Source of the DNA: an uncultured Anaerolineaceae bacterium
GTDB lineage: Bacteria; Chloroflexota; Anaerolineae; Anaerolineales; UBA4823
NCBI GenBank assembly: GCA_964633225.1
Contig: CAZWFQ010000003.1
Coordinates: 26,064 to 90,063 of the forward strand
Direction: 5' to 3'
DNA length: 64,000 nucleotides
Shown one piece after another: positions 8,423-45,491 of this stretch. Position 1 is the first letter of the stretch; each line of letters begins with the position of its first letter. Both the position numbers and the translations under genes were made by a program. The notes beneath the pieces were generated by a model, which did no database searches, was not told the DNA's origin, and saw only the letters and a program-made list of their open reading frames with translations.

Positions 8423-8433
8423 AGTATGTTTCC

Positions 8434-24702: not shown

Positions 24703-27700
24703 TTAGGATGTAGCCGTACCCGCAGGCCGCATGAACGCCCGCCACACCTTTTCGGGCGTAACTGGGTTCTCATTGATCTGCACACCGCGGCCGTCGGGTG
24801 CATATAGGCTGGCGTCTAACACTGCATTGCCAACTGCCGGAGCCACCCCATCCATCGGAATCTCTGCCACAGCCTTCACACCAAATGGGTGCGATGGCTC
24901 GTAGGTCTCCACAAAAATCGTCTCCAGCTCTGGCATTTCATGGGCCAGGAAAATATGATAATCGCGCAGATCACGCTCGCGCGGTTGGCCCTTCTCATCA
25001 TACACCATTTCTTCACAAACTGCATAGCCCAGAGCCTGGGTCATCCCGCCCTCAATCTGGCCAGAGGCCGTCAGCGGGTTGACGATGACGCCCGAATCGA
25101 CTGCCATCACCAGCTTGTCCACCTTCACCTGGCCCGTCTCAATATCCAGGGTTACCTCGGCAAATTGGGCAGCAAAGGGCGGCGGCGATACCGGCGACAT
25201 ATAAGAGGCCACCGCCATGATCTGTTCCTGGTTCTCATGGTGCAGGGCATTGTGAGCCACTTCTGCCAGGGTCACAAATTCACCGTTGGGCGCAGACGCC
25301 CGCCCATCTGACAAGGATATCATCGCAGCAGACAGTGCTTGTGCGCCCGATGCTTTCAGACGCTCGTTGAGCATATTTGCGGCCCGCTGGCGGATCTGCT
25401 CAGCCGCCTTCTCGGCAGCACGTGTCACTGCGCCGCCAGAGATGTACGTGGTGCTTGATGCGTAAGCGCCTTTATCAAAGGGAGTGAAATCGGTATCTGA
25501 AGAGTATACAACCACATCTTCCACCCGCACGCCCAGCACCTCTGCTGCCATCTGCGCCAGAACGGTATCCGAACCGGTCCCCAGGTCGGTGGCTCCAATG
25601 AGCAAATTGAAAGAGCCATCATCATTCATTTTGATGCTGGCAGCCCCCATATCCAGGTATGGAATAGCCGTGCCCTGCATCACCATCGCCACGCCCACCC
25701 CTTTACGCAGGTGAGGCTTGCCTGGCACATCATGCCAGGCCGCCTGGCCATATTTTTGATCCCAGCCAATGGCAGCCTTGCCCTGGCGCACACATTCTTC
25801 CAACCCGCAAGTCTGGATAGTCTCAGGGCGTGGTTCACGCCCCTCGCTCCAGGCTGTGCTGAAGGGATGCAGCTCACCAGCGCGCAAGGCATTCTTAAGC
25901 CGGAACTCCAATGGATCGAAACCCATGGCGCGGGCAATCTTCTCCATATGGCGCTCCAGCGGCCAATAACCCTGCGGAACGCCATAACCCCGGTAAGCAC
26001 CGGCTGGCGGATGGTTGGTGTACACCACGTCGGCATAGAAACGGATGTTGGGGTTCTCGCGGTACGGGCCATCTCCCACATATAAAGCCATGGCCTTGTG
26101 CCCTGTGTTGCCGGTCACCGTCAGCGCGTGGCAGCCATAAGCACCCGTATCGCTCAAGGCTTCCATAGAATTAGCTGTAATAGTTCCATCCAGCTTAACG
26201 CCGGTCTTCATGCGCACGCGCATGGGGTGGCGTGAGCGCGCAGCAATGAACTCTTCTTCACGGCTGTATTCATAAATCACGGGGCGGCCCGTGGCAATCG
26301 TCAGGTGAGCAGCTACATCCTCAATCAAGATCTCTTGCTTGCCGCCAAAGCCGCCGCCAATGCGCGGCTTGATCACCCGGATGCGCTTGACCGGCAGCTT
26401 CAACACTGGCGCCAGCACCCGCCGGATGTGGAAAGGCACCTGGGTGCTGGTACGGATCACCAGGCGGTCATCCTCGTCCCAATAGGTCACCGTTACGTGC
26501 GGCTCGATATGGGCTTGCTGCACTTTGGGCACCTCGTACTCAGCCTCAAAAATACGGTCAGCATCAGCAAAGCCTTTTTCCACATCACCAATATCAATGC
26601 GGATCTCCGCCGCCAGGTTTCGGGCGGGGTCTGAGTCGGCAAAATTGACAAATTCGGGTTCGTCGTGCAAGCGCGGCGCAGCAGGCTGCATGGCCTGGGC
26701 TGGGTCGAGCAAAGTGGGTAACAGCTCGTATTCTACATCGATCAACTTTAAGGCTTGCTCAGCGATTTCTTCTGTCTCAGCCGCCACAAAGGCCACCCGA
26801 TCACCCACAAAACGCACCTTATGATCCAATGAGAAAGCATCCAACGGGCCGGGGATGGGATCTGACTGCCCGGCGGTGGAGTAGATCACACGCGGGATGT
26901 CTTGCCAGGTCAATACTGCCGCCACCCCCGGCAGGGCACGCGCCCGGCTGGCATCAATGCGCCGGATGTTGGCATGTGCATGCGGGCTGTGCAGTACCTT
27001 GGCGTATAACATACCGCGTAGTTCCATGTCAGCGGCAAAAGCAGGCTTACCTTGCGCCAGCTTGACGGCATCCACCTTAATTTCTGATTTACCTACCCGT
27101 TGGAGGGCTACCGGCTGCGGTGTAACCACTACCCTAGACCTGGGACGCGCCTGCACGGCAGGTGAAGCCGGATCAGCCGGGCGGTCAGGCTCTTCGATCA
27201 CATCGCCAGGCCCTTGGGCAGAGCCCCAGAAACCCGTGCCACTGACCGGAATCCCGCCTTCAGAAGTCAGGCTCGCGGAGAACTTCCCCCCCAGCACCGC
27301 CGCCGCGTGCAGCACTGCCTGGACCGGTTTCACATAGCCGGTGCAGCGGCACAATACACCTGAGAGCGCCTGGCGTACTTCCTCTTCAGATGGATCAGGG
27401 TTACGATCTAGCAACGCCTTGGCCGCCAGCAGTTGCGCCGGGGTACAGTAGCCGCATTGGATGGCGCCGCTCTCGATAAAAGCCTGCTGTAGCACATGCA
27501 GGCCATCGGTAATCTTCCAGCCCTGCTGGGGGTGCTCTCCCAATGACTCAATGGTCTGGATCAAATGACCTTCAGCTTGCGCTGCCAACAGCAAGCACGA
27601 ATTAACCGGCTTGCCATCCAGCAGCACCGCACAAGCGCCGCATTCACCATGGTCGCAACCGTGCTTTGCGCCGTAATAACCCAGGCCGCGCAAGACCTTC

Positions 27701-27768
27701 AACAGGCTGTCGCCTGCCGCAACCGATACTTCTTGTAGGGTGCCGTTAATGCTCAGCGAAATCTTCAT
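24703..27768 (-). CDS. XDH-family fused [2Fe-2S] plus molybdopterin-binding catalytic subunit (enzyme B)
   Basis: N-terminal GCDHGECGACAV, QCGYCTP and CRCTGY. Then QQAHIEPH, GGGFGGKQE, SRHPM, YRGYGVPQ and AVAEIP. The preferred start is the ATG at 27768 (MKISLSINGT), preceded by GGAG. Confidence 0.92.
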   Translation of the reverse strand: MKISLSINGTLQEVSVAAGDSLLKVLRGLGYYGAKHGCDHGECGACAVLLDGKPVNSCLLLAAQAEGHLIQTIESLGEHPQQGWKITDGLHVLQQAFIESGAIQCGYCTPAQLLAAKALLDRNPDPSEEEVRQALSGVLCRCTGYVKPVQAVLHAAAVLGGKFSASLTSEGGIPVSGTGFWGSAQGPGDVIEEPDRPADPASPAVQARPRSRVVVTPQPVALQRVGKSEIKVDAVKLAQGKPAFAADMELRGMLYAKVLHSPHAHANIRRIDASRARALPGVAAVLTWQDIPRVIYSTAGQSDPIPGPLDAFSLDHKVRFVGDRVAFVAAETEEIAEQALKLIDVEYELLPTLLDPAQAMQPAAPRLHDEPEFVNFADSDPARNLAAEIRIDIGDVEKGFADADRIFEAEYEVPKVQQAHIEPHVTVTYWDEDDRLVIRTSTQVPFHIRRVLAPVLKLPVKRIRVIKPRIGGGFGGKQEILIEDVAAHLTIATGRPVIYEYSREEEFIAARSRHPMRVRMKTGVKLDGTITANSMEALSDTGAYGCHALTVTGNTGHKAMALYVGDGPYRENPNIRFYADVVYTNHPPAGAYRGYGVPQGYWPLERHMEKIARAMGFDPLEFRLKNALRAGELHPFSTAWSEGREPRPETIQTCGLEECVRQGKAAIGWDQKYGQAAWHDVPGKPHLRKGVGVAMVMQGTAIPYLDMGAASIKMNDDGSFNLLIGATDLGTGSDTVLAQMAAEVLGVRVEDVVVYSSDTDFTPFDKGAYASSTTYISGGAVTRAAEKAAEQIRQRAANMLNERLKASGAQALSAAMISLSDGRASAPNGEFVTLAEVAHNALHHENQEQIMAVASYMSPVSPPPFAAQFAEVTLDIETGQVKVDKLVMAVDSGVIVNPLTASGQIEGGMTQALGYAVCEEMVYDEKGQPRERDLRDYHIFLAHEMPELETIFVETYEPSHPFGVKAVAEIPMDGVAPAVGNAVLDASLYAPDGRGVQINENPVTPEKVWRAFMRPAGTATS

Positions 27769-27798
27769 CTTTACTCCGTCGTTGAACGATTCCAATCG

Positions 27799-29442: not shown

Positions 29443-30204
29443 TCATTCCAGGCAGCGTTTTGCCAGGGTTGCAGCCATTGCACAGCGGTATTCGGCACTG
29501 GCCCATTGATCATCTGCCTGGCTGTAAGCATTGTGTGCTGCAGCCTCCACCCCTCCGGGCTCAGGTCCATCCATCGCCAAGAGCGGGGCAGTGCCCCATC
29601 CACCCAACGCCAGGCGTGTACGGCCTGCCGGCCATTGCGCCAGTGCCGCGCAAACAATTGGCCGGTCAGCAGGCGTGCGCGCCACAGATTGATATGAAAG
29701 CTTGACCGTAGTAGCCGCCAGCACGATTTCCGTGATCAATCCGCGGCTCGGTCCGGCCTGCCGCATGGGCAGCCAACTACCGAGGCCAATCTTCTCACTG
29801 CCGCCCACTTTCCGGATGGTCAGGGAAGCATCCAAAGCCAACATGACCGTTGTGAGTGGAGAGCGGCCGTCTGCAGATGCCAGGGTTCCCGCCAGGGTGG
29901 CAGCCTGGCGCAAGTTGTGCGTCACTTCCAGCCGGATCGCCTCATAGAATATATCCGGTAAGCCCGGATGATCCAGCAAGTTCTGCAAAGTGACCGTTGC
30001 GCCCAGGTGCAGGTTATTTCCGCGCACTTCAATCTTGTTCAGGTCCAGGGCCTGCAGATCAATTACAGCCACCGCTCGAGACTCTGCCTGGGCCCAGCGG
30101 TTAAGCACCGTCCCGCCGCCCAGGGGCAGGGTCAATGGCTCTGACCGTTTTATCAACCGCAGAGCTTCATCAATTGTTTTTGGACGTTGGTATTCAACGA
30201 TCAT
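29443..30204 (-). CDS. XDH-family FAD-binding (CoxM-like) subunit (enzyme B), short form
   Basis: MIVEYQRPKTIDEALRL...LPLGGGTVLN. The ATG at 30204 lies 7 nt after the upstream stop. AAGGAG sits within the end of the upstream gene. Confidence 0.85.
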   Translation of the reverse strand: MIVEYQRPKTIDEALRLIKRSEPLTLPLGGGTVLNRWAQAESRAVAVIDLQALDLNKIEVRGNNLHLGATVTLQNLLDHPGLPDIFYEAIRLEVTHNLRQAATLAGTLASADGRSPLTTVMLALDASLTIRKVGGSEKIGLGSWLPMRQAGPSRGLITEIVLAATTVKLSYQSVARTPADRPIVCAALAQWPAGRTRLALGGWGTAPLLAMDGPEPGGVEAAAHNAYSQADDQWASAEYRCAMAATLAKRCLE

Positions 30205-30211
30205 TCCAAAT

Positions 30212-31285
30212 TCACTCCTTCTTACCAATCAAAAAGTAGGCCATCATATCGGGCTTGTTGGTCACCGGGATCAAGCTGCGCGCCTCAAACAAGTACTTGT
30301 CTTGCAGCCGCTCCTTCGTCACCGCTGAAACCTGGATCCGTCCTGGTACACCGTTCGCTTCCATGCTTTCAGCCACGCGCATTGTATCTCCCCACAGGTC
30401 ATAAATGAACTTCTTGCGCCCCACCACCCCTGCCACAACAGGCCCAGTGTGGATCCCAATGCGAATGCGCACCGGGCGGCCCTGGCTTGTCTCGAGTGCG
30501 GTATCTGCCATGCTGCCAATGGCCTGCTGCATATCCAAGGCCATCGCGGCCACTGCCTCGGCATGGTCTGGCCTGGGGGTTGGCAAGCCGCCGGCGATCA
30601 GGTAATTATCACCGATCGTTTTGATCTTTTCCAGGCCGTACTTGGCTGCCAATTCATCGAAACAAGAGAAGACCCCATTCAGCATCATGATCAGGTTGCC
30701 TGGGGTCATGTTCTCAGCCATGCGCGTGAAGCCAACAATATCTGCAAACAGCACGGTTACATCTGCAAAGCTATCCGCAATCACCAATTCGCCGCGCTTG
30801 AGTTTTTCGGCCACCGGCTGCGGCAGGATGTTCAACAACAGGTGCTCGGCTTTATCACGCTCTTCTTGCAAGGTAGCCAGGTAAGCTTGCTCCTGGTCAC
30901 GCAGGCGCTTTTTTTCCAGGCAGGCATCGATACGCGCGCTTAGCAGCACCGGATTAAAAGGCTTGGGCAGGTAATCTTCTGCACCCATCTCAATGCAGCG
31001 CACAATGCTTTCCAGTTCATCCAAAGCCGAGATCACAATCACTGGCAAAGAACGCAAAGCCGGTTCTTGCTTCATGGCATCCAATACCTGGTAGCCATCC
31101 ATTTCTGGCATCAAAATATCCAACAACACCAGGTCAAAGGCCTGGGAACGCATCTTTTCAATGGCTTGCAAACCGTTCTCAGCCAGGTCAACCTTATGCC
31201 CTTGCTGCTGTAAGCTGAACTCCAGCTTCATGCGGTTCAGGCGGTTGTCATCCACCACAAGGATCGTCCCGGGCCGCTTATCCAC
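30212..31285 (-). CDS. response regulator receiver fused to a class III cyclase homology domain
   Basis: REC (VVDDNRLNRM..., DLVLLDILMPEMDG, LPKP) plus a CHD closely alignable to mycobacterial Rv1625c-type cyclases (VLFADIVGFT, EKIKTIGDNY, YDLWGDTMRVAESME). The GTG start directly abuts the kinase stop codon. Confidence 0.92.
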   Translation of the reverse strand: MDKRPGTILVVDDNRLNRMKLEFSLQQQGHKVDLAENGLQAIEKMRSQAFDLVLLDILMPEMDGYQVLDAMKQEPALRSLPVIVISALDELESIVRCIEMGAEDYLPKPFNPVLLSARIDACLEKKRLRDQEQAYLATLQEERDKAEHLLLNILPQPVAEKLKRGELVIADSFADVTVLFADIVGFTRMAENMTPGNLIMMLNGVFSCFDELAAKYGLEKIKTIGDNYLIAGGLPTPRPDHAEAVAAMALDMQQAIGSMADTALETSQGRPVRIRIGIHTGPVVAGVVGRKKFIYDLWGDTMRVAESMEANGVPGRIQVSAVTKERLQDKYLFEARSLIPVTNKPDMMAYFLIGKKE

Positions 31286-34200: not shown

Positions 34201-34543
34201 TCGGCAGCAAAACCAGGTACTCTCGCCCCGCGCCAGGCAGCCCGCCTCGCACCAGGGCAACCGCCCCCACCACATACAAAAGCACCAGGATAACCCAGCC
34301 CTTTACCTGGGCAGGCACCTGCCTGAGGTAGGTAATGGCAATCAAAATCACGTACAACAGGACATAAAGCAGCATTGCCGGTCGCTGGGCAGGATCTTGC
34401 CAACCCCCAGCAATTGCTACCACCAAGATCGGCAGCCCCACAACCGTCATCACCATCAACACCACACGCAAGACGCGAGCACGCCACTCGTTCAACAACG
34501 AGTCAATTTGACGGCTTCTGACGTGGGGGATTTTGATCTTCAT
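31286..34543 (-). CDS. hybrid sensor histidine kinase (multi-TM sensor, GAF, HisKA, HATPase, two REC domains, Hpt)
   Basis: H-box [12 protein letters not shown] boxes ([24 protein letters not shown]). Two DVQMPEMDG receiver domains. C-terminal Hpt motif [14 protein letters not shown]. Confidence 0.95.
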
Positions 34544-34581: not shown

Positions 34582-35073
34582 TTATTCAAGCTCTTGATCC
34601 TCTTCAGGGTAAACTTTCCAACCCAAAGCTTCCAGGTCAGCCTGCGTCATCCCTTCTGAGGGCACGTTCACAAGCAGTGCCTCTGCTTCTGCCAGCAACT
34701 GCCCATCCGCAGAATAAATGGCGCTGGTGGCAGTGGCGACACGGCCCTTATCTTTGCCGGCCCGCCCTACCACGCGCAGGGGCTGCCCAATGGGCACATT
34801 CTTGCGATAACGCACATCCAGGCGGGCGGTGTACATGAACCGTGGTTCGCCTTCGACAGGGTCTTTGGTGTAAACCCGACCCGCCGCTTCATCCAACATA
34901 GACGCCACAATCCCACCATGCACAACCCCCGGATAGCTCTGGAAATGCTCCGGGACGGTATATTCCACCAGCACCTCGCCAGGGGCGGTTTGATAGAATT
35001 TCAATTTCAAGCCATGCGGGTTTTCGAGACCGCAGATAAAACAATGTCGAGAATTGGGCTGGCGGTTGCGCAA
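34582..35073 (-). CDS. PaaI-family hotdog-fold thioesterase
   Basis: 163 aa. [12 protein letters not shown] zinc-ribbon-like N-terminus and the [15 protein letters not shown] hotdog motif. Confidence 0.8.
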
Positions 35074-35157: not shown

Positions 35158-35180
35158 AAAGGGGGGGCAATGCCCCCCCC
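35158..35180 (-). terminator. G/C-run hairpin terminator after the LLM oxidoreductase gene
   Basis: On the minus strand: GGGGGGGGCATTGCCCCCCC followed by TTTAAGG. It lies in the 129-nt gap that ends the F420 block. Confidence 0.55.
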
Positions 35181-35202
35181 ATAAATGCTAGATTAATCTT
35201 AC

Positions 35203-36201
35203 TCAGGCCTGTGCAAAGGTATCGATCAACAGGCGCACATTTCCACCAGCCGGATACAAAATGGGGCAGGTGCAGCCTTGCTTCCGATATTCAGCAACTT
35301 TGGCACGCGCTTCATCGGGCGTTCCCGAAGCCGTGATGCGGTAGATCAGATCTTCGGGCACCAGGTGCTTGGCCTTGTTGATCTGCTCTTTGGTAGCCGG
35401 CCATCCGAGGATTGATTGGATCTGGGCCACCACATCTTGCGAAACACCCGAAGCCTTGGCAATGTGCGGCTGCTGGGCCAGGTATTGGCACAACAACATA
35501 CGGGTATAGTCGATCGCCTTATCGTGGTCATGATCCACTGAGCACACCACCAATTGTGGGCGATCCAGGTCATCCAGTGTACGCCCGGCTTTGCGGGCCC
35601 CTTTATCCAAGAGCTCCAAAGCCCTCACGTTATATTCTGGGGGCACGCAGTAATTCAGCACGGCGCCATCAGAGATTTCACCGGTTAGTTCCATCATCTG
35701 ATCGCCCGTTGCACCAATCATGATCGACACCTGGCGTGGAGAGCGGCGGCCATGCACCACATCCAGTTCAATCCCATCCACGTGGTGGAATTCGCCGTGG
35801 AAGGTGACACGTTCCATGTTCAACAAACGGCGCAAGACCTCCACCGTCTCACGCATTGCCACCAACGGCTTGCGGCGTTCGATACCCACATTGCGTGCCA
35901 ATGGGTCCCACCAGGCTCCGATGCCGCAGATCACGCGCCCCGGGGCCAGGTCATCCAATGTCAAAAAAGTTGCCGCCAGCAGGCCAATATTGCGCGTCCA
36001 GTTATTGATCACGCCCGAGCCGATCTTCAGACGCTCGGTCACCGCGGCATAGGCTGCCATCGGCACGATCGCATCCCGCACCAGGCGCGATTCGGCCTGC
36101 CAAACCGCTTCGAAACCCCGTTGTTCAGCATAGCGCACGTAATCCAACCCGTCTCGCAGATCATGAGCATCTTGCAAATACAAAGCTACTCGTTCGGTCA
36201 T
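35203..36201 (-). CDS. luciferase-like monooxygenase (LLM) class oxidoreductase, probably F420-dependent
   Basis: TIM-barrel LLM pattern ([15 protein letters not shown]..., GIGAWWDP). A perfect AGGAGG lies 5 nt before the ATG at 36201, so the ORF-track 16-aa extension is unlikely. F420 dependence is inferred from the neighbouring genes. Confidence 0.75.
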
Positions 36202-36290
36202 GTCATCCTCCTGATTAAAATGGTCGAAATTTTTGTCTTTACTGATCATGCATCGATCACGAAACCGAAGTTCAGCCCATCACGCAGAGA

Positions 36291-36902
36291 TCAGTTGCTC
36301 ACTGGCTCCATCGCCTGGTTGACCAGCTCAAGATCTTCTGGCGTGTCCAAATCCAGGGCCAGGGAGGGTGAATCAAAGATTTGCAGGCGAGCGCCCGCCC
36401 GCTGTGCCGCCTGGCAGTGGCGGGCAAATGAATCGGGGCCGAATTCATAAGGAAAGAGCCCCGGGGGTGAGAGCAGCAGCGCATTGGTGCCTACCCGGTG
36501 CCGGTCAGGAGCGATCACCACCACGGGGGGCTTTTTGGCCCTACTGATCATCGTAGATACGTCGTCAACCGTCATCAACGGGATGTCTGCCGGTAGGATC
36601 AGAACCCCACCTGGCGCATATTTGCGTGCAAAGGCAGTTGCCCGTTCCAGAGCGGTGTTCAGCTCTGGAGCGCCATGCTCCAGGATAGTATGTGCTTTAT
36701 GGTCGCGCGCCACGGTCAACGCCCGCGGGTCGCGGCTGATCACCAACACACGCTCAAGCTTGGGCACCTGAGATAGCACATCCAACGTATTCTCCAACAT
36801 ACATTGATTAAGCGCCGCACGCTCATCTTCGCTCAACACATCTGCCAAACGGGATTTTCCCCGCTGCAAAGGCTTAACCGGTACGATTGCCCATAATGTC
36901 AT
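36291..36902 (-). CDS. cofC: phospholactate/phosphoenolpyruvate guanylyltransferase of F420 biosynthesis (CofC/FbiD)
   Basis: MTLWAIVPVKPLQRGKSRL N-terminus, ADIPL and DLDTPEDL. Lies 4 nt downstream of cofD. Confidence 0.88.
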   Translation of the reverse strand: MTLWAIVPVKPLQRGKSRLADVLSEDERAALNQCMLENTLDVLSQVPKLERVLVISRDPRALTVARDHKAHTILEHGAPELNTALERATAFARKYAPGGVLILPADIPLMTVDDVSTMISRAKKPPVVVIAPDRHRVGTNALLLSPPGLFPYEFGPDSFARHCQAAQRAGARLQIFDSPSLALDLDTPEDLELVNQAMEPVSN

Positions 36903-36906
36903 CTGA

Positions 36907-37866
36907 TCATTTGCCCTTAGCCGGCCCAGCGTTTTCCACCAGGCCCTGGCAGAATTGTATCACTTCACCAGCTAAACGTTTCCGATCATCCGGAACTACC
37001 ATCAATGTATCTGTGACACAGGTTTGCACACCCACATCCTCGATCGAATCAGCCAGGCTTTCGTCCAGGCTGTCTAAGACAAAGCCCGTCAGCAGCCGGT
37101 TGTAGTGCATGGCAACCGCCAGAGCTGAGGGAGCAATGCCCAGCTCAGCATACATTTTTGCTGCCGGACCTTTAACCGTCTGCCCGCCAATGATCGGTGA
37201 GACCGCCACCACCGGGCGCTCACCAACCGCCTGGCGCATCCCCGGCACCGCCAGGATGGGATCAATGCTGACCCACGGATTTGAAGGGCAGAAGACCACC
37301 ACATCCGCCCTTGCCAATGCCTCCAACGCACCAGGGGCCGGGTGGGCTGCTTGCACATTCTCGAAGCGAAAACCGGTCACTTGAGGCTGGCACTGCCGGT
37401 GAACAAAATACTCCTGGAAGGCCAACTCCCCCGCACTGGTAAGCACAAGCGTGGGAACAGGCTGGTCGCTCATCGGCAGAACCGGATGGGTTACACCCAT
37501 CGCCCGGCAAAAATCAGCTGTCACCTGGCTAAGGCTCTGCCCGGCGCTCAGCCTGTGGGTGCGCTCCAGGTGCAGCCCCAGGTCCCGGTCGCCCAGGCGA
37601 AACCAATCTGGCCCACCCAAGGCTTTCAAACTCTCCAGGGCATTCCAGCTCTCTTCCTGCCGCCCCCAGCCGCTAGCCGTGTTGGCAAGCCCAGCCAGGG
37701 TATAACAGACGGTATCCAGGTCAGGGCAAATCTTCAGGCCCAGGTGCTCAAAATCATCCCCGGTATTGACGATAACCGTCAGGTTTTCGGGCGGCAGAAG
37801 CTGAGCCAGGCCATCCACCAACTTGGCCCCGCCCACGCCCCCCGCCAATGCCACAACATGGATCAA
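36907..37866 (-). CDS. cofD: 2-phospho-L-lactate transferase (CofD/FbiA)
   Basis: VVALAGGVGGAKLVDGL, VNTGDDFEHLGLKICPDLDT and WFRLGDRDL signatures. Confidence 0.92.
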   Translation of the reverse strand: MIHVVALAGGVGGAKLVDGLAQLLPPENLTVIVNTGDDFEHLGLKICPDLDTVCYTLAGLANTASGWGRQEESWNALESLKALGGPDWFRLGDRDLGLHLERTHRLSAGQSLSQVTADFCRAMGVTHPVLPMSDQPVPTLVLTSAGELAFQEYFVHRQCQPQVTGFRFENVQAAHPAPGALEALARADVVVFCPSNPWVSIDPILAVPGMRQAVGERPVVAVSPIIGGQTVKGPAAKMYAELGIAPSALAVAMHYNRLLTGFVLDSLDESLADSIEDVGVQTCVTDTLMVVPDDRKRLAGEVIQFCQGLVENAGPAKGK

Positions 37867-37876
37867 CGTATCACCT

Positions 37877-38239
37877 TCACTCTCCCCCGCGCCGCACCAA
37901 CATACCGCGCAGGCTCCCTTTGTTCATGAATTCCAATACTTGGTCAATATCCGCATCGTCACAGCCCAACAGAACCTTGATCTCTGCATCGCGTTTGTGC
38001 AGGTCTACCGAGCACAACACCCCCACCAGTGCCCGGCCTGGCAAAGAACCCACCCACACATCCACCCCGCCGCCATCTACAGTGGTGGTGGGGTGCAAAT
38101 ATCCATAATCCAGCGGGTAAATCATCCCAGGATAACGCGGGTGCGCTGACCCTTTGGGGCGATCGATCACCACCTGGCTGGTGGCAACCAGACGCTCAAG
38201 GTGCGACCAGAATTCAGATGATTGTGGGCTGAGATCCAT
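37877..38239 (-). CDS. small family-I inorganic-pyrophosphatase-like protein (truncated, degenerate acidic motif)
   Basis: IDRPKGSAHPRYPGMIYPLDYGYLHPTTTVDGGGVDVWV aligns with the E. coli Ppa core VDRF...[24 protein letters not shown]. The start overlaps the cofE stop by 1 nt. Confidence 0.6.
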   Translation of the reverse strand: MDLSPQSSEFWSHLERLVATSQVVIDRPKGSAHPRYPGMIYPLDYGYLHPTTTVDGGGVDVWVGSLPGRALVGVLCSVDLHKRDAEIKVLLGCDDADIDQVLEFMNKGSLRGMLVRRGGE

Positions 38240-39030
38240 TAGCGGAACATATCCTGTTCTTTGGGGCGCAATAATTCTGCCAGGCGGCCATCGCGCAGGG
38301 GATATGGGAAGCCGCGCACATGCACCACGGGCGTACCCTCAGCCGCCTGGCCCATTACCAAAGACGCAGCGGCAGCCAGTTCATCCGCCGCTCCAATCAG
38401 GGTGATCTTCAAGGTGTAACCAAACAAATCCGATTGGCCGCGCAGATCCACCAGGCCCGGCAGGCCTGCCAGGCCAATGGCCACACCCACCACGCCCAGG
38501 CGCCAGGCCCGCCCATGCGAGTCGATGATCAGCACCCCCAGGCCTGCCCCGCTGGCAGACTCAAGCCGCTCTCGCAGGGCTTGGGCTGAGGCATCGGGAT
38601 CCTCAGGCAGCAGCAGCACCCATTCCTCACCCTGGCTGCCTGCCGCCAGGGTGCCGTTGCCAGCGACATTGGAATGATCGATCCCCGCGCTGGCGCACAC
38701 AAACCCCAGGCGGTGCTCCACAATGATCGACCCTGGGCGGCTGCGCAGCACTGCCTGGCTCTCGCGCAAGATCAATTCCACCACGCGGGCATCCTTTTCG
38801 GCACGCTGGGCCAGTTCCACTGCCTGTGGCGAGGGGCTGATGGTTGCCAGGTTTACCCAGCGACCTTCTGCTTTTGAGACCACCTTCTGAGCCACCACCA
38901 GGATATCCCCATCCACCAGGCTCAAGCCGGCTTGCTCCAGTGCAGTCAAGATCAGTGCAGCCAGGTCATCGCCGCTTTGCACTATCGGCAGGCCCGGTAA
39001 AGGGGTCAATGTCATCGACATAGGCGGCAC
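38239..39030 (-). CDS. cofE: coenzyme F420-0:L-glutamate ligase (CofE), single-domain form
   Basis: GDILVVAQKVVSKAEGR, ASAGIDHSNV, IIDSHGRAWR and ADELAAAASLVMGQAAEG. No C-terminal nitroreductase-like (FbiB-C) domain. Confidence 0.9.
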   Translation of the reverse strand: MPPMSMTLTPLPGLPIVQSGDDLAALILTALEQAGLSLVDGDILVVAQKVVSKAEGRWVNLATISPSPQAVELAQRAEKDARVVELILRESQAVLRSRPGSIIVEHRLGFVCASAGIDHSNVAGNGTLAAGSQGEEWVLLLPEDPDASAQALRERLESASGAGLGVLIIDSHGRAWRLGVVGVAIGLAGLPGLVDLRGQSDLFGYTLKITLIGAADELAAAASLVMGQAAEGTPVVHVRGFPYPLRDGRLAELLRPKEQDMFR

Positions 39031-39041
39031 ACCCGCTTGTT

Positions 39042-39722
39042 CTAAGCCGCAGCCGGCGGCTCGAGACCTGAAAGGCTGATGCTGGCAGTCTTGACGCCAT
39101 AATGCTTGTTCACGCTGATCAAGATGGCCGTCAGACCCTCTACCGTGAGGGCATTATCCAGACCGCCGGCAAAATATGCCTGCATCCCACCGGCTTTCGC
39201 CAGGTCAATCACCTGCTGGGCGGCATCAGCCGAATCTGAACACACCAGCACGTCCGTTGCAATCTGCCCACCCAGATTCTTCTTCAAGGCATGCGACGGA
39301 ACATTCTGGAAGGCCGCCACCACCTGCACGCCCGTCCCCAGGATATTCTGTGCCAGGCGGGCCGCTGAGGGCGGTTCGGGCGGACGCGGATCTCTGAAAT
39401 CTACCCGGGCAGTGGCATCCACCAATATCTTCCCCTGCAGGGCATCTTTCAGGCCTTCCAGCGCAGCCTGGTGAGCAGACTGAACCACGGTGAGGACGCT
39501 GATATCGGCCTGGCGGGCGGCATCAGCATTCTCTACGCCGCTGACACTCTCCAAGCCCAACTGCGCATTCAACTCAGCGGCGGTGGCCTGGGCTTTCTCT
39601 GCCTGCCGCGAACCGATGATCACTTTGTAACCGGCATATGCCCACCGCAGGGCAAGTCCTGGGCCTTCTTTCCCTGTTCCACCCAAAATGGCGATGGTGG
39701 GGAGATTGTTTGCTTGTGTCAT
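39042..39722 (-). CDS. npdG: NADPH-dependent F420 reductase (Fno/NpdG)
   Basis: IAILGGTGKEGPGLALRWAYAGYKVIIGSR Rossmann N-terminus, typical length of 226 aa, AGGAGG RBS. Confidence 0.85.
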   Translation of the reverse strand: MTQANNLPTIAILGGTGKEGPGLALRWAYAGYKVIIGSRQAEKAQATAAELNAQLGLESVSGVENADAARQADISVLTVVQSAHQAALEGLKDALQGKILVDATARVDFRDPRPPEPPSAARLAQNILGTGVQVVAAFQNVPSHALKKNLGGQIATDVLVCSDSADAAQQVIDLAKAGGMQAYFAGGLDNALTVEGLTAILISVNKHYGVKTASISLSGLEPPAAA

Positions 39723-39783: not shown

Positions 39784-41118
39784 TCAAACATTACTGCTGT
39801 AGCGCTGCCACACCTTTTCGGCCACGGTGCGCGCCTGTGCGCTGATGGCTTCTTCGTCCAGCCCCAACAGCTTGCGATCGCGCATCAACACCTGCCCCCC
39901 CACCATGGTCATGGTGACCATGCTATCGTGGAAGCCGAAGAGCATCTGCCAGGGCAGGTTGCCCTCGGTCAGGGGCGTGTAGGGATGATAATCGACAAAG
40001 ATCAGGTCAGCATGCGCACCCGGTTCCAGCACGCCCACCTTGCCAAAAAACGTCTCTGCCAGGGCCGCATTGTTGTAGGCTGCCATCTGCACCACGTGGC
40101 TGCCGTTCATACAGCGCGGATCGCGGTGCCAGAGTTTATGCGCCAGGTAAGCAGCCTTCCAGTCTTCCCACATAGCATTTGAGAAGCCGTCATTGCCCAA
40201 CCCCACGCGCACCCCGGCCTCTAGCATGGCCTCGACCGGCGGCAGCCCTACACCGTTGTTCATATTTGAACGCGGCTGGTGCGTGACCCAGGTATTCGTC
40301 TCAGCCAGCAATTGGATCTCCTCTACACTGACGTGCACGGCATGCACCACAATGCTGTGCGGGCCAAGCAAACCATGCTGCTGCAGCCGGTTGACCACCG
40401 GCAGGCCGCATTTGGTCAGGCTGTCTTGCTCATCCACCTCATGTTCAGCCACATGGATGTGAAAGCCAACCTCTTGGGGGGCGGCCTGGCGGCAGTCTGC
40501 CAGGGTCTGTTCAGACAAGGTCAGGCTGGCATGCAGGCCAAAAGTGGCCGCCAGACGCGGGCTGGGCTGGCCTTTCAAGCGGTTGATAAAGCGCATGTTC
40601 TCGGCAATCCCGGCCTGAGCCCCCGCCAACCCGTTGCGGTCGGTCACTTCATAACACAAAGATGCCCGCACACCGGCCTGCTCCACCGCCTCAGCAATTA
40701 CGTCCAGCGAACCATCGATGAAGTTGGGCGAGGCATGGTGGTCGATAAGGGTGGTGGTACCGTGGCGGATGGCATCCACCAGGCAGACCAGGGCCGAGTA
40801 ACGCACGGCTTCCTCGTCCAAAGCCAGGTCTAACGGCCACCACAGCTTCTGCAAGATCTCTGGAAAATCCTTGGCTGGCGCGCCCGGTATTGCCATGCCG
40901 CGCGCAAAGGCTCCATAGAAATGGGTGTGGGCACAAATATTGCCCGGCATCACATATTGGCCCTGGGCATCCAATTGTTCTGCTTGCGGATAGCGTGCCA
41001 GGAGTTCGGCCTGCGGGCCGATGGCAGCAATCAGGCCATCTTGAACATACAGGGCCTGCCCGTCCAATACCTGGTTAGGCTGACCCCAAGTGATCAGTTT
41101 TCCGTTCGTTATCAGCAT
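39784..41118 (-). CDS. ssnA: SsnA-like amidohydrolase-superfamily aminohydrolase
   Basis: MLITNGKLIT..., VMPGNICAHTHFYGAFARGM and the amidohydrolase metal ligands (HTH, HVAEH, VHAVH, GNDG). GGAGG lies 5 nt before the ATG at 41118. Confidence 0.75.
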   Translation of the reverse strand: MLITNGKLITWGQPNQVLDGQALYVQDGLIAAIGPQAELLARYPQAEQLDAQGQYVMPGNICAHTHFYGAFARGMAIPGAPAKDFPEILQKLWWPLDLALDEEAVRYSALVCLVDAIRHGTTTLIDHHASPNFIDGSLDVIAEAVEQAGVRASLCYEVTDRNGLAGAQAGIAENMRFINRLKGQPSPRLAATFGLHASLTLSEQTLADCRQAAPQEVGFHIHVAEHEVDEQDSLTKCGLPVVNRLQQHGLLGPHSIVVHAVHVSVEEIQLLAETNTWVTHQPRSNMNNGVGLPPVEAMLEAGVRVGLGNDGFSNAMWEDWKAAYLAHKLWHRDPRCMNGSHVVQMAAYNNAALAETFFGKVGVLEPGAHADLIFVDYHPYTPLTEGNLPWQMLFGFHDSMVTMTMVGGQVLMRDRKLLGLDEEAISAQARTVAEKVWQRYSSNV

Positions 41119-41129
41119 CACAGCCTCCA

Positions 41130-41762
41130 TCAATCAAATACGGTCGGCAAGGTAGAGTCATTGTACGCCGCAAAGACATCCCGCAGAATACGCGGTGGGG
41201 TGCGCTCGCCCGAGAGCTCGCCTGGGATATCTTGCTGTGCAAAGAAAGCCACTTCAGTTGTCTCATTACTGGGTGTAGGCTGACCGCTTAATAAATCACA
41301 CAGAAAGACAAGCTTGAAGGCATGGAATAATTCTACCGGCCCAAAGCGGTTGCAGTCATAGATGCCCACCACCCGCCGGGCCTTGACTTTGAACCCGGCT
41401 TCTTCCCACACCTCTCGCTCTGATGCTTCAGAGGGCACATCGCCCACATCCGCCCAGCCGCCCGGCAGAGTCCAGCCGCCATCTATCCGCTCGCGCACCA
41501 TCAGCAGTTTGCCATCTTGGAAAACCGCCCCCCGCACATCGATGCGCGGGGTAGCATACCCAATCTGGGCCTTAAAAATGCTGCTCAAGGCCGCAAAATC
41601 CAGGCCGGCATACTCGCTGATCATCTCAGCCGCAATCTCATGCAAGCGCTGGTAGCGTTGGCGTTGAAAGTCGTCTTTGGCGTAATTGTTGCCGGTTTGG
41701 GCCAGTGCCTGAATCTCACGCGCCCATTCCAGCCAGCGAGGAGTGGTCACCGGATCGGTCAT
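41130..41762 (-). CDS. NUDIX hydrolase with N-terminal Nudix_N-type helical domain
   Basis: Nudix box GGWADVGDVPSEASEREVWEEAGF (G-x5-D-x7-REVxEEAGF). N-terminal WLEWAREIQALAQTGNNYAKD. Both ends overlap neighbouring genes by 4 nt. Confidence 0.88.
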   Translation of the reverse strand: MTDPVTTPRWLEWAREIQALAQTGNNYAKDDFQRQRYQRLHEIAAEMISEYAGLDFAALSSIFKAQIGYATPRIDVRGAVFQDGKLLMVRERIDGGWTLPGGWADVGDVPSEASEREVWEEAGFKVKARRVVGIYDCNRFGPVELFHAFKLVFLCDLLSGQPTPSNETTEVAFFAQQDIPGELSGERTPPRILRDVFAAYNDSTLPTVFD

Positions 41763-44557
41763 AGGGCTGCCAATACCTGCTCCTGATCCACCGGTAACCT
41801 GTCGACACGCACACCCACGGCGTGATAAATAGCATTGGTGATGGCAGGCGTGGTGGGAATACTGACCAGTTCACCCACTCCCTTGGCGCCATAGGGACCT
41901 TCAGCCGTAGGGTGCTCAACCACAATCGAGACGATCTCGGGCGTCAGCTCGATCGAAGGGATGCGGTAGCGCGCCAGGCGATCAGTGATGACCTGGCCAT
42001 TTTCTACCACAAACTGCTCGGTGAGGGCATTTCCCAGGCCCATCATGGCCCCGCCTTCCACCTGCCCCTGCAAACCCAACGGATTGAGCGCGCGCCCCAC
42101 ATCGTTGGCGGCGATCAGGCACAGCACACGTACTTCACCGGTCAGGGTATTCACTTCCACCTGGGCTGCCTGGGCGGCAAAGCCATAGGCAAAGTGCATC
42201 TTGCCGCCTTCGCCCAGCGGATTGGTGGTTGGGGCCCAATACTCATACAGTGCGCGCGGCTGACGGCCTTCGGCCTTGAGCAGCGCCACCACCTCGCCCA
42301 AGGGCAGGCGTTGATCGCCCACCTGGGCCAACCCTTCCACAAAGCGCACTTGCTCTGGGGGGCAGTCATACTTTTCCGCCAGGCTGCTGGCAAGCGCCTG
42401 GCGCAACGCCTGGGCGGCATGCCGGGCAGCATTGCCCGTCACATAGGTCTGGCGTGAAGCCGTAGTAGGGCCGCCGTCGGGCGTCAGGTCTGTATCCATC
42501 ACCAGCACCCGCACCCGCCCCGGCGCCACCTGAAACTCTTCTGCCACGGTCATTTGCAAGATGGTCACCAAGCCCTGGCCCAGCTCAGCCGACGAGGTGC
42601 GCACTTCCAAAGAGCCATCAGGGTACAATTCTACTTCGGCCCCGGCCTTATCAGGCGCGCCCCCGCCCAGGCCAGTATTCTTATAGGCCACAGCAAAGCC
42701 CCAGGCCCGCCGTTTGTGCGGCTCGCCAGCCACCGCCTGCGCCTTGAAAGGCTGGTCGCCAGCCCGGCGGCGCATTTCAGCTTCAACACGCTGGATGCAC
42801 TCCAACAGTCCAACACTCTCGTCCAACACCTGGCCTGTATTGGTCACGCTGCCCACGCGCAGCGCATTCATGCGCCGTAATTCCACCGGGTCCAGGCCAA
42901 GCTTCTCCGCCAGCATGTCCATCATGCTCTCAACGGCAAAGGCCGATTGGGTCACGCCAAAGCCTCGGAAAGCCCCCGCAGGCGGGTTATTGGTATACAT
43001 GGCATAACAATCGGCGCGGGCATGGGGTGATTCGTAAGGCCCCGAAGAATGGGTGGTGGCGCGCGTCAGCACTTTTTCGCCCAGCGAAGCATAAGCCCCG
43101 GTATCGCCATACAACTCCGTCTCAACAGCCGTCAGCGTCCCATCCTTGCGCGCCCCCACCTTCACCCGGATCTGGGTGGCGTGGCGCTTGGGGTGCACCA
43201 GCAGGCTCTCGTGCCGGTCAAACAACAGCTTGACCGGCCGGCCTGTGGCCTGGGCCAATAGCGCGGCGTGGATCTGCCCGGCAATATCTTCCTTACCGCC
43301 AAAACCACCCCCGATCAATTGGCCGATGATGCGCACCCGATCTTCTGACCATCCCAGGGCGCGTGCCACCTGGTTGCGGTCAGCATATGGGATTTGAGAA
43401 CCAACATACACTTCCATACGCTGAATCCCAGCATCATGTTCGTCTGGAACAAGACGGGCAATGCTGCACTCAGGTTCTAAAAATGCGTGGTCGGTAATGG
43501 CGGTATAGAAGGTATGTTCCATCACCACGTCTGCTTGAGCAAAGCCTTCGCTCACGTCGCCCTTGCGCACCTTGATGTGCTTGAGCAAGTTGCCGCCAGC
43601 GTGCAGGCTGGGGGCATCGGCCTGGCGTGCCTGCACTGGGCCAGCGACCACCGGCTGGAGGTCGTATTCTACCGCGATCAACTCCAGCGCTTGCAGGGCA
43701 ATCTCGCGCTGCTCAGCAGCAACAATGGCAATCGCATCCCCCACGTAACGCACCCGCTCACCTACCCCCACCATCACTGGCCAATCGGGGATCACAATGC
43801 CGTGCTGGCGCTCGCCGGGCAGGTCGGCGGCAGTCAACACCGCCGCCACGCCGGGCAAAGCGCGGGCCTTTTCCACATCAAGTGTCTTCAAAAAGGCGTG
43901 CGGCACACCCGCCCGCTTGACACAGGCATGCAGCATGCCCTCAAATTGCACATCATCCGTGAACCTGGCAGCCCCAGTCACTTTTGCCACCGCATCTGGG
44001 CGGGGCTGGTGGTGACCAATGGTAGCATATGCGTCCGCCTGGCCCGAATTTGCCACGTTGGGAGGCGGCACAGGCTCGCCCGTGCGCAGAGCATAGGCCG
44101 CCGCCTGGATGGCCCGCACAATAGTGGGGTAACCGGCACAGCGGCAGAGAGTATCTTTGAGGGCATGGCGGATCTCAGCCTCACTAGGGTCGGGCTTGGC
44201 CTGTAACAGTGCGCCAGCGGTCATGATCTGCCCGGGGATGCAAAAGCCACACTGCACCGCACCATGCAGCACAAAGGCCTGCTGAAGCGGGTGCAGGTCT
44301 TCAATGCGGGCATCTGCGCCCGCTACAGCCGACAGCCCTTCAATGGTCAGCACGTCTTTGCCTTCCACCCGCGCAGCCGGGTAGCTGCAAGACAGCACTG
44401 GCAGCCCATCCACCAACACAGTACACGCGCCACACTCAGCTTCGTTGCAGCCGATCTTGGTGCCGGTCAGGCCCAGGCGATTGCGCAGCAAATCTGCCAG
44501 CATCTCGCCAGGCAAAGGATCCAGGTTATATGCGGTTCCGTTAACGTGGAAGTTCAT
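41759..44557 (-). CDS. XDH-family fused [2Fe-2S] plus molybdopterin-binding catalytic subunit (enzyme C, XdhD/YgfN-like)
   Basis: GCNEAECGACTV, QCGFCIPG and CRCAGY. Then TDHAFLEPE, GGGFGGKED, KRHAT, FRGFGVTQ and GVGELV. The start overlaps the upstream FAD-subunit gene by 17 nt. Confidence 0.92.
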   Translation of the reverse strand: MNFHVNGTAYNLDPLPGEMLADLLRNRLGLTGTKIGCNEAECGACTVLVDGLPVLSCSYPAARVEGKDVLTIEGLSAVAGADARIEDLHPLQQAFVLHGAVQCGFCIPGQIMTAGALLQAKPDPSEAEIRHALKDTLCRCAGYPTIVRAIQAAAYALRTGEPVPPPNVANSGQADAYATIGHHQPRPDAVAKVTGAARFTDDVQFEGMLHACVKRAGVPHAFLKTLDVEKARALPGVAAVLTAADLPGERQHGIVIPDWPVMVGVGERVRYVGDAIAIVAAEQREIALQALELIAVEYDLQPVVAGPVQARQADAPSLHAGGNLLKHIKVRKGDVSEGFAQADVVMEHTFYTAITDHAFLEPECSIARLVPDEHDAGIQRMEVYVGSQIPYADRNQVARALGWSEDRVRIIGQLIGGGFGGKEDIAGQIHAALLAQATGRPVKLLFDRHESLLVHPKRHATQIRVKVGARKDGTLTAVETELYGDTGAYASLGEKVLTRATTHSSGPYESPHARADCYAMYTNNPPAGAFRGFGVTQSAFAVESMMDMLAEKLGLDPVELRRMNALRVGSVTNTGQVLDESVGLLECIQRVEAEMRRRAGDQPFKAQAVAGEPHKRRAWGFAVAYKNTGLGGGAPDKAGAEVELYPDGSLEVRTSSAELGQGLVTILQMTVAEEFQVAPGRVRVLVMDTDLTPDGGPTTASRQTYVTGNAARHAAQALRQALASSLAEKYDCPPEQVRFVEGLAQVGDQRLPLGEVVALLKAEGRQPRALYEYWAPTTNPLGEGGKMHFAYGFAAQAAQVEVNTLTGEVRVLCLIAANDVGRALNPLGLQGQVEGGAMMGLGNALTEQFVVENGQVITDRLARYRIPSIELTPEIVSIVVEHPTAEGPYGAKGVGELVSIPTTPAITNAIYHAVGVRVDRLPVDQEQVLAAL

Positions 44558-45491
44558 TACCAGCCCTTTCCCAGGCTAACGCCAGCACCTGGCGCAGCAG
44601 CACACCCGCCAAATGACGGCGGTATTCTGCCGTGGCGCGCTGCGGGCTGGTGCGGAAGCGTGCCTCACCCAACAAGGCTTCGTTGGCTTTTGCCAGGGCA
44701 GGCTCGTCCAACGGCTGTCCGAGCAACGCTTGCTCGGTTTGCAAGGCGCGCAAGGGCTTCAAGCCGGCAGGACCGATCGCAATTCGCACGCCCGCCAGGC
44801 GGTTGCCATCGCGCTGCAGCCAGGCCGCCAGGTTCAACACAGGCAGCGCCACCCCTTGGGGGCGCATCACCCGCCGGAAGGCTGATGCCTGGCCCGGCTG
44901 GCTCAAGGGCAGCCAGAAGCCCACCAACAGCTCCCTGCTTTCGGTCAATATCGAGCGCCCCGGCCCCAGGTAGAGATCGGTGATAGGCACAGTGCGCCTG
45001 CCGCTGCACCCAGCCAGTTCAGCCTGGGCATCCAGGGCGTGGAGAGCAATGCTGCCATCCGCAGCCGGCAGGGCATGCGCCACATTGCCGCCCAGGGTCG
45101 CCACGTTGCGCACCTGCGGCCCCCCCACCTGCCCGCAAGCCTCCACCAAAGCCTGGGCATGTTGGCACACCAGGGGCGCATCCACCAGGCGGTGCAAGGG
45201 TACAGCCGCGCCAATGAACAGCCGCTCACCGGTCACTTCAATGGTTTTTAGCTCAGGGATTTGGGTAATGTCGACCAGGGTGTCGACAGCAGCCTGGCGT
45301 CCCTGCTGTAACTCTAACAGCAGGTCGGTTCCACCAGCTACCAGGCGCGCCGGGCCGCTGGCTTTTGCCAGGGCTTGTAAGGCGTCTTCGATACTATGAG
45401 CAAGATAGTAACAGTTCCAGATGGTCATCGAATCGGCGAGATGGCGGTACTTTTCGACGGGCCGGCTGCCCGACGCCGGCGCAAGATTCAC
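44541..45491 (-). CDS. XDH-family FAD-binding subunit (enzyme C, YgfM-like)
   Basis: LVAGGTDLLLELQQG FAD motif and a CO_deh_flav_C-like C-terminus. The start is uncertain (GTG at 45491 or ATG at 45428). Confidence 0.85.
   Translation of the reverse strand: MNLAPASGSRPVEKYRHLADSMTIWNCYYLAHSIEDALQALAKASGPARLVAGGTDLLLELQQGRQAAVDTLVDITQIPELKTIEVTGERLFIGAAVPLHRLVDAPLVCQHAQALVEACGQVGGPQVRNVATLGGNVAHALPAADGSIALHALDAQAELAGCSGRRTVPITDLYLGPGRSILTESRELLVGFWLPLSQPGQASAFRRVMRPQGVALPVLNLAAWLQRDGNRLAGVRIAIGPAGLKPLRALQTEQALLGQPLDEPALAKANEALLGEARFRTSPQRATAEYRRHLAGVLLRQVLALAWERAGNELPR

Follow-up and report, generated by a model that had tools for sequence, protein, structure and literature searches.

An F420 tail operon without FO synthase or FbiE is nested in a reductive purine degradation cluster of an uncultured Anaerolineaceae bacterium

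Introduction

Coenzyme F420 is usually regarded as self-made by the organisms that use it, and a 64,000-nucleotide (nt) stretch of DNA from an uncultured Anaerolineaceae bacterium (referred to below as the window) raises the question of what an operon for finishing this cofactor does where the genes for its deazaflavin core, FO (7,8-didemethyl-8-hydroxy-5-deazariboflavin), are not found. The operon in question is a run of six consecutive genes on the minus strand (39722–35203), npdG (fno), cofE, a gene for a 120-amino acid (aa) pyrophosphatase-like protein (designated PPL), cofD, cofC, and a gene for an oxidoreductase of the luciferase-like monooxygenase (LLM) class. The pathway background given in an earlier note on this DNA, in which CofC/FbiD can use phosphoenolpyruvate (PEP), dehydro-F420-0 results and, in mycobacteria, FbiB reduces it by its C-terminal domain, agrees with the literature (PMC6450877, PMC8764529, PMC8498797). 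The locus poses three linked questions, namely where FO comes from, what reduces the dehydro-F420, and what the finished cofactor is used for.

The answer developed here is that the locus is a copy, lacking both FO synthase and the stand-alone dehydro-F420 reductase FbiE, of an F420 tail operon that occurs across the order Anaerolineales, and that it is nested in a reductive purine degradation cluster. We put at roughly 60% the probability that the block is a salvage-type F420 module within a supercluster for reductive purine (urate) degradation. The source genome is an Anaerolineales metagenome-assembled genome of 189 contigs that is 93.55% complete, and it was compared with a survey of 151 Anaerolineales genomes, each at least 85% complete, and with a synteny set of 27 loci; the loci fetched were 25 cofD loci sampled over the order and metagenome loci.

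Results

The six-gene block and the missing FO synthase

The block consists of the following features.

39042..39722, minus strand: npdG/fno, NADPH:F420 oxidoreductase (TIGR01915, 185.8 bits against the 149.8-bit cut-off)
38239..39030, minus strand: cofE, single-domain F420:glutamate ligase of 263 aa (TIGR01916, 277 bits against 180.65)
37877..38239, minus strand: PPL, minimal family-I pyrophosphatase-like protein (P0001) of 120 aa (fold match; translationally coupled to cofE)
36907..37866, minus strand: cofD, phospholactyl/enolpyruvyl transferase onto FO (TIGR01819, 310.7 bits against 257.45)
36291..36902, minus strand: cofC/fbiD, guanylyltransferase of the PEP/2-phospholactate (2-PL) type (TIGR03552, 183.3 bits against 105)
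35203..36201, minus strand: Mer-like LLM, putative F420H2-dependent isoxanthine (2,8-dioxopurine) reductase (sequence similarity, ssnA pairing and a published prediction)
about 35160..35181, minus strand: G/C hairpin after the LLM gene (−26.9 kcal/mol, z −3.3)

All of these genes and those of the flanking cluster lie on the minus strand, and the gene order and spacings given in the earlier note were confirmed. There are 11 nt between npdG and cofE, cofE and the PPL gene overlap by 1 nt (TAATG), 10 nt separate the PPL gene from cofD and 4 nt separate cofD from cofC, and another 89 nt lie between cofC and the LLM gene, which starts at an ATG at 36201 preceded by an AGGAGG ribosome-binding site and ends at 35203. 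Four of the encoded enzymes, NpdG, CofE, CofD, and CofC, exceed the curated equivalog cut-offs. The F420_ligase domain of CofE occupies residues 14–240 and its match to the full-length FbiB model NF009810 is limited to model positions 12–243 of 449, hence it has no nitroreductase domain and is not an FbiB, which together with the TIGR01916 match bears out the description of a 263-aa CofE without the FbiB-type C-terminal domain. The hairpin, made up of eight G, C, a loop of AUU, G and seven C, is real by folding energy, but its U tail is only UUU and the consensus terminator scan accordingly made no call at the G/C hairpin terminator proposed earlier.

The earlier note had also recorded that cofG, cofH, and fbiC are absent from the window and had proposed a search of the rest of the genome. 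Family searches at the TIGR03550/TIGR03551 cut-offs gave no match to CofG, CofH, or FbiC in the window or in the whole genome, which is 93.55% complete, and when the genome was searched by tblastn with the CofG of a relative in the Anaerolineales, no E value was better than 0.77. The lack of FO synthase thus extends far beyond the window.

The slot between cofE and cofD and the reduction of dehydro-F420

The CofC has the motif FGPDS, with Gly at the position of Mycobacterium tuberculosis FbiD G163 and Mycetohabitans CofC S162, and Gly is found there in all 27 loci. Since Ser or Thr at the Mycetohabitans position marks the use of 3-phosphoglycerate (PMC8764529), the 3-phosphoglycerate route to F420 was rejected as the answer to the missing reductase. 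The CofC is of the PEP/2-PL type and a reductase may therefore be needed.

A nitroreductase of about 200 aa occupies the slot between cofE and cofD in 16 of the 27 loci, and it is often adjoined by a PPOX-class F420 enzyme (TIGR03618, 110 bits against 79). TIGR03553 is the top match of the slot nitroreductases (136–147 bits), and the best PDB relative of a profile built from them is FbiB's C-terminal domain (4XOM/4XOO). Judged by these matches, they are of the FbiE type known from Thermomicrobium (PMC8498797), and would be the "missing" dehydro-F420 reductase for most of the order. Exactly one such gene is present in 98 of the 151 genomes, and it adjoins cofD where coordinates were compared (e.g., G003, G008, and G099). 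Three families that keep CofD are the exception, these being the family of the source genome (f1; FbiE in 2/13, CofD in 13/13), f11 (1/13 and 10/13), and f15 (0/13 and 11/13). A profile search of the source genome found no FbiE-type nitroreductase in the operon or elsewhere, so the earlier observation that a single-domain CofE leaves the reduction step without an assigned enzyme holds for this genome. The reductase puzzle is real for family f1 and is solved by FbiE for most of the order.

The best nitroreductase in the source genome (C66:4640-5218, 192 aa) scores 124 bits on the operon nitroreductase profile, compared with 170–329 bits for true members, shares 28–35% identity with the slot enzymes, and matches BluB best among the NCBIfam models. 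An ending of the pathway that departs from the canonical one, in which dehydro-F420-n is used unreduced, 2-PL is available, or this paralogue is the reductase, is considered unlikely. It would account for the near or complete absence of FbiE from three families that retain CofD, the paralogue is shared at 84% identity with a sister genome (G121) that also lacks the operon nitroreductase, and CofC enzymes in general prefer 2-PL in vitro (PMC8764529). Against this, no source of 2-PL in bacteria is known (PMC6450877), dehydro-F420 is reportedly less stable (PMC8498797, PMC8764529), and the paralogue reaches only 72.5 bits on the FbiB C-domain model TIGR03553, where the slot enzymes lie at 136–147 bits, and has unrelated neighbors (a methyl-accepting chemotaxis protein, HsdM, and a two-component system).

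Other genes also occupy the slot. A 2H phosphoesterase (PF13563) recurs just past cofE (L019:6741-7349, L021:8197-8790, L022:5714-6271, L033:8983-9522, L045:4456-5001), and two loci have a Peptidase_C26 protein, resembling gamma-glutamyl hydrolase, between cofE and cofD (L031:8924-9643, L032:8952-9677), with a homolog in the source genome at C29:10561-11304; this peptidase could trim F420 oligoglutamate tails.

The pyrophosphatase-like protein

The occupant of the slot in the window is PPL, which in sequence resembles pyrophosphatases only weakly (Pfam InPase, E 0.003; PF00719, E 0.007, and at 16.7 bits below the gathering score of 23.5; residues 47–75 of the Escherichia coli pyrophosphatase, PPase). 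An AlphaFold model built with 35 homologs has a pLDDT (predicted local distance difference test score) of 94, and Foldseek ranks only family-I PPases at the top for it, at a probability of 1.0, which upholds the earlier label of PPase-like. The family has at least 1580 short members with the invariant motifs DRPKGS, HPR, YPLDYGY, DGGGVDVW, and VDLxKRDxExK, and it keeps most of the family-I metal-binding positions. Like E. coli Ppa (PDB 1FAJ/1INO), PPL has the barrel fold, the YPxxYGY and DGxxxDV motifs, the equivalents of Y51, Y55, D65, and D70, and another cluster of acidic residues (VDLxKRDxExK), but it has 120 rather than about 175 aa, a helix in place of the N-terminal strands, and no C-terminal segment with Y141/K142.

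Long homologs of PPL mostly consist of this domain N-terminal to an FbiB-C-like nitroreductase, and one locus (L059) has the exact gene string of the window with a 311-aa PPL–nitroreductase fusion replacing the 120-aa gene. Going by gene order and fusions, PPL is tied to F420 tail synthesis in the Anaerolineales, and it is intact here without its usual FbiE partner. It would remove pyrophosphate (PPi) from, or hold the diphosphate intermediate of, the step catalyzed by CofC and CofD, an assignment that is tentative and to which we give rather less than even odds. No report of a PPase that takes part in F420 synthesis came up in literature searches. The source genome has no match to the canonical soluble PPase (PF00719); it does have two membrane H+-PPases and a family-II-like PPase, so that PPL is not the sole PPase of the cell. 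Other fusions join the PPL domain to GNAT acetyltransferases, Nudix hydrolases, a cytidylate kinase, or TrmK-type methyltransferases, and tandem copies of it are known as well (P0306–P0355), so that its role extends beyond F420.

FO synthase across the order

Of the 151 genomes, 131 have a CofD above cut-off, 10 a CofG, and 9 a CofH, and the CofG- and CofH-positive genomes belong to the same two families. In the family of the source genome the counts are 13/13 for CofD and 0/13 for both CofG and CofH. Because the same pattern is found order-wide, including in single-contig genomes in which CofD is present and CofG and CofH were not found (G014, G042, G073, and G140), the missing FO synthase does not stem from a gap in the assembly. 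Two genomes that do have CofG and CofH (G082 and G045) hold the same tail operon (loci L037 and L043), and its role is therefore ordinary F420 tail synthesis, from which it follows that most of the order must get FO from elsewhere. No report was found in literature searches for FO salvage or for cofD in Anaerolineae.

That FO is nevertheless made in the cell, by a CofG and CofH encoded on unassembled DNA or by an unrecognized, non-homologous FO synthase, is considered quite unlikely. Such an explanation draws on the state of the assembly (189 contigs, 93.55% complete), on the oddity of a conserved tail pathway without its substrate, and on the presence of cofG and cofH in two families of the order. 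It has to contend with the failure to find CofG and CofH in about 140 of the 151 genomes, single-contig ones included, and in any of the 13 genomes of the family, and also with the 27 cof neighborhoods, in which no gene of unknown function and no radical-SAM gene recurs. In addition, one genome has a partial CofG match (G034:C57:26177-26575; 149 bits, model positions 29–160) with an in-frame TAA, which may be a decaying FO synthase gene, and the lineages that lose cofD keep fno and the LLM gene, as would fit a progressive reliance on outside deazaflavins.

The LLM gene and the purine degradation cluster

What the cofactor is used for is suggested by the genes on either side. The conserved order in the synteny set is a selenium-dependent xanthine dehydrogenase (XDH) with its FAD subunit, Nudix, ssnA, fno, cofE, the variable slot, cofD, cofC, LLM, and a hotdog thioesterase, and the string continues with a YgfM-like FAD subunit and then an XdhD-like enzyme. 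In the window the flanking members are as follows.

44541..45491, minus strand: FAD-binding subunit of an XDH-family enzyme (Pfam FAD_binding_5 and CO_deh_flav_C; XdhB-like at 191 bits, below cut-off)
41759..44557, minus strand: selenium-dependent XDH-like Mo/Fe-S subunit of 932 aa (TIGR03311, 786.6 bits against a cut-off of 830)
41130..41762, minus strand: Nudix_N-NUDIX hydrolase (Pfam PF12535 and PF00293)
39784..41133, minus strand: SsnA amidohydrolase, the ring-opening enzyme of the reductive urate pathway (NF005540, 518.4 bits against 444; TIGR03314, 500.8 against 455.5)
34582..35073, minus strand: hotdog-fold thioesterase after the LLM gene (Pfam 4HBT)
29443..30228, minus strand: YgfM-like FAD subunit of a second Mo enzyme (best match TIGR03312, 86.7 bits, below cut-off)
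24703..27795, minus strand: XdhD-like Mo/Fe-S subunit, candidate urate-to-isoxanthine reductase (TIGR03313, 716 bits against 1101.9)

The related loci share these genes to differing extents. The fno gene is found in 23 of 27, the selenium-dependent XDH-like subunit upstream of ssnA in 12 of 27, and the YgfM-like subunit likewise in 12; a Nudix gene has the equivalent position in L020, L021, L038–L040, L042, L058, and L059, XdhD-like copies of 70–73% identity come after the LLM block in L063 and L064, and the thioesterase has a tblastn match in 18 of 26 related loci (11 of 27 by stricter clustering of open reading frames, ORFs). Genes for the selenium cofactor, yqeB and yqeC, are also within the window.

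In E. coli, XdhD reduces urate to 2,8-dioxopurine (isoxanthine), and YgfK and SsnA dearomatize this compound and open its ring, while Chloroflexota have a putative F420-dependent luciferase-family enzyme instead of YgfK/UacX (Li et al., bioRxiv 10.1101/2025.05.19.654654); a second preprint concurs on the role of SsnA (bioRxiv 10.1101/2025.04.24.650524). The source genome has no YgfK equivalog (the best TIGR03315 score, 246 bits against 835, comes from a partial GltD-like match). ssnA is present in 17 of the 18 LLM-bearing loci, and in genus g5, whose LLM gene lies apart from the cof operon, the immediate neighbor of that gene is an ssnA homolog. Taking the missing YgfK, the pairing with ssnA and the published prediction together, the LLM is best read as an isoxanthine reductase, and would correspond to the Chloroflexota enzyme predicted by Li et al. 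(2025), not to a dehydro-F420 reductase.

The LLM itself, the only one of its kind in the source genome, has F420-dependent LLM classes as its top 17 NCBIfam matches, all of them below cut-off, with FMN classes (SsuD, LuxA) at about 30 bits. Its best PDB matches are Mer (E 1e-36, nearly full length) and Fgd. It resembles Mer (PDB 8QQ8, 1Z69, and 1F07), its closest structural-sequence relative, in a putative F420H2-dependent hydride transfer to an N-heterocycle, but it scores far below the TIGR03555 cut-off and is thus not a Mer, and its host has no methanopterin context. A function as an F420-dependent methylenetetrahydrofolate reductase was rejected in view of the two MetF-type genes in the genome. 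With 70–91% identity across the order, compared with 35–77% for the cof genes, the LLM is more strongly conserved than any other gene of the string, and hundreds of metagenomic cluster representatives are about 90% identical to it. A search for further F420 users in the genome gave just a weak PPOX-like match (60.6 bits against 79).

The earlier note had proposed that the adjacent LLM or NpdG is the missing reductase, standing in for the FbiB C-domain beside a single-domain CofE, and this now appears highly improbable, with a small chance left to the LLM in those families that have no nitroreductase. The proposal has in its favor that family f1 lacks FbiE, its best profile match being the BluB-like protein at 124 bits, that a CofC of the PEP/2-PL type may require a reductase, and that an LLM is present in 8 of the 11 nitroreductase-less loci (L020 and L042 have a PPOX-class F420 enzyme instead, and the eleventh, L029, has neither within the fetched stretch). 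However, LLM and FbiE are present together throughout four families (f9, 14/14 for each gene; f14, 13/13; f10, 7/7; f16, 7/7) and in 10 of the 16 nitroreductase-bearing loci, hence the LLM is not a substitute for FbiE, which fills the slot in relatives alongside both LLM and npdG. Moreover, the LLM gene stays beside ssnA when apart from the cof genes and persists in genomes without cofD, it is more conserved than every cof gene, and the published prediction gives it isoxanthine reduction. As for NpdG, it satisfies the Fno equivalog model TIGR01915.

A second suggestion, that this F420 serves the flanking hydroxylase loci, fares well in one form and poorly in another. It is supported by way of LLM and SsnA in the reductive urate pathway, whereas a direct feed to the hydroxylases is improbable. 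No FrhB/FdhB-type F420 module was found in the genome, and an exchange of electrons between F420 and the XDH-type enzymes themselves was accordingly left as unlikely.

Several features of the surroundings are recorded here. The thioesterase and the Nudix hydrolase are conserved parts of the string to which neither F420 synthesis nor the urate pathway as published assigns a role. In the window, a segment with genes for a hybrid sensor kinase and for a response-regulator cyclase (30212–34543) separates the thioesterase from the YgfM-like gene; these latter two genes adjoin or nearly so in L020, L063, and L064, so this segment looks like a local insertion. The supercluster also contains a family-II (DHH) PPase-like gene (21200–22546), a copy of which follows the XdhD-like gene in L063, and GlcD/GlcE/GlcF-like genes (two FAD_binding_4 proteins and a CCG Fe-S protein) lie directly after cofC or LLM in two loci (L058:10886-14731, L059:9627-13491).

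Lineages that have lost further steps

In the closed genome G012, locus L062 (G012:C1:1162000-1181000) has the string ssnA-fno-cofE-PPOX-cofC-LLM-thioesterase with intact ORFs at 5449–10983; cofD and the nitroreductase are missing from the operon, and no CofD match is found genome-wide. Hence CofC and CofE are retained there without CofD. Of two further genomes (loci L063 and L064), G017 is without cofD and G133 without both cofD and cofC. The losses of cofD and the partial cofG match with its in-frame stop, with the F420-using enzymes kept, suggest a stepwise loss of F420 biosynthesis and fit a reliance on outside deazaflavins. That the cof genes are a decaying relic by which the cofactor is no longer made, for which the loss of FO synthase, of FbiE in family f1 and of cofD or cofD and cofC in G012, G017, and G133 could be cited, is very hard to reconcile with four enzymes that pass equivalog cut-offs (CofD in 131 of the 151 genomes), with intact, tightly spaced and translationally coupled ORFs, and with an old and maintained synteny across the order.

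Discussion

The reading that best accommodates these results is that of a salvage-type F420 module serving reductive purine degradation, and its proposed mechanism has five steps. The FO core would not be made by the cell and would be taken up from the environment, probably from neighboring microbes. CofC would activate PEP or 2-PL with GTP, CofD would move the group onto FO, and CofE would add glutamates, as expected from the chemistry of these families. NpdG/Fno would then put the hydride of NADPH onto F420. The Mer-like LLM would use F420H2 to dearomatize 2,8-dioxopurine and SsnA would open the ring, the LLM replacing the YgfK of E. coli, as the conserved pairing and the published prediction suggest. 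Finally, the flanking selenium-dependent XDH-type and XdhD/YgfM-type enzymes would provide the substrate.

A broader form of this reading is that the Anaerolineales as a whole are deazaflavin auxotrophs that are losing F420 biosynthesis stepwise, with FO synthase gone from about nine tenths of the genomes sampled, FbiE from three families, and cofD from a few lineages, while Fno and the highly conserved F420-type LLM are retained. Their fermentation of purines and urate would then depend on methanogens, actinobacteria, or phototrophs that release FO or F420, and the PPL domain would be an extra, hitherto unrecognized component of tail synthesis. We hold this wider proposal only provisionally, with the odds falling a little short of even.

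A number of observations weigh against the salvage module. The LLM is under every curated cut-off for F420-dependent LLMs, its best score being to Mer (TIGR03555, 168.5 bits against 348.7), and its substrate is a predicted one. It is present in 118 of the 151 genomes, including 8 of the 16 without a CofD match, one of them the closed genome G012, so that tail pathway and LLM are not strictly linked at the genome level, and their co-occurrence was not used as support. An equivalog of ygeW, which acts downstream in the urate pathway, was not found in the source genome, and that genome is 93.55% complete. The residue of E. coli PPase that is the proposed general base, D67, has Gly as its equivalent throughout the PPL family, and members of the family are also found outside cof operons, which together make PPi hydrolysis by PPL uncertain. 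Furthermore, no FO importer was identified in the genome. The actinobacterial "F420-0 ABC transporter" cassettes (NCBIfam TIGR03873 and partners; ABC, ATP-binding cassette) embody the same idea of importing a deazaflavin precursor, but none is present here, where the required precursor would be FO rather than F420-0, and this type of importer was rejected on finding just generic ABC ATPase matches (best 189 bits against 372 for the ATPase model). An EamA-family transporter gene lies inside the cof operon of two loci, between the PPase-like gene and a pair of PPOX and nitroreductase genes (L045:5360-6214, L046:3663-4517), and is a candidate FO importer there; it was rejected for the source genome, which has no homolog.

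Comparison with known systems sets the locus apart in several ways. The F420 pathway of the Thermomicrobium roseum or Chloroflexi type, with its stand-alone nitroreductase FbiE (Braga et al., 2020, as summarized in PMC8498797), has separate cofE, cofD, and cofC as found here, and most Anaerolineales likewise have an FbiB-C-like nitroreductase, located between cofE and cofD. The differences from that type are that the source genome, like its family, is without the nitroreductase, that FO synthase is missing, that ssnA and LLM enclose the operon, and that extra genes occur in the slot, for the PPase-like domain, a PPOX-class flavin/deazaflavin oxidoreductase, and the 2H phosphoesterase. The mycobacterial pathway of FbiC, FbiD, FbiA, and FbiB (PMC6450877) has an FbiD of the same Gly type as the CofC (FGPDS), and its FbiA and the CofE domain of its FbiB are homologous to CofD and CofE, but here there is no FbiC, CofE is not fused to a nitroreductase, and Fno rather than Fgd reduces F420. 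The xdhD-ygfM-ygfK-ssnA cluster of E. coli and Clostridium is matched in the window by the SsnA equivalog, the XdhD/YgfM-like and selenium-dependent XDH-like enzymes, and YqeB/YqeC. It differs in that YgfK/UacX is absent with LLM in its place, no ygeW equivalog was found, and Fno and a whole cofactor-finishing operon lie between ssnA and the reductase.

The kinds of component described herein are already known, and the role of the LLM has been predicted in print (Li et al., 2025). Three features were not found reported in the literature searched, namely that FO synthase is lacking order-wide, that the cofactor genes are set between ssnA and the reductase, and that there is an accessory slot in which a PPase-like domain can be fused to FbiE. 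This PPase-like domain of the fusion, the 2H phosphoesterase, and the PPOX-class enzyme are candidate new parts of F420 biosynthesis, and natural genomes are now defined in which the reduction of dehydro-F420 is unaccounted for. A compact operon that needs only to be fed FO may also suit heterologous production of F420. If correct, the reading given here would explain why cofactor-finishing genes are found in a predicted F420-dependent variant of the reductive uric acid pathway. Anaerolineales are abundant in digesters and sediments, often alongside methanogens, and an order that keeps just the finishing steps would turn FO into a vitamin that is traded, and would give such partnerships a concrete, testable basis.

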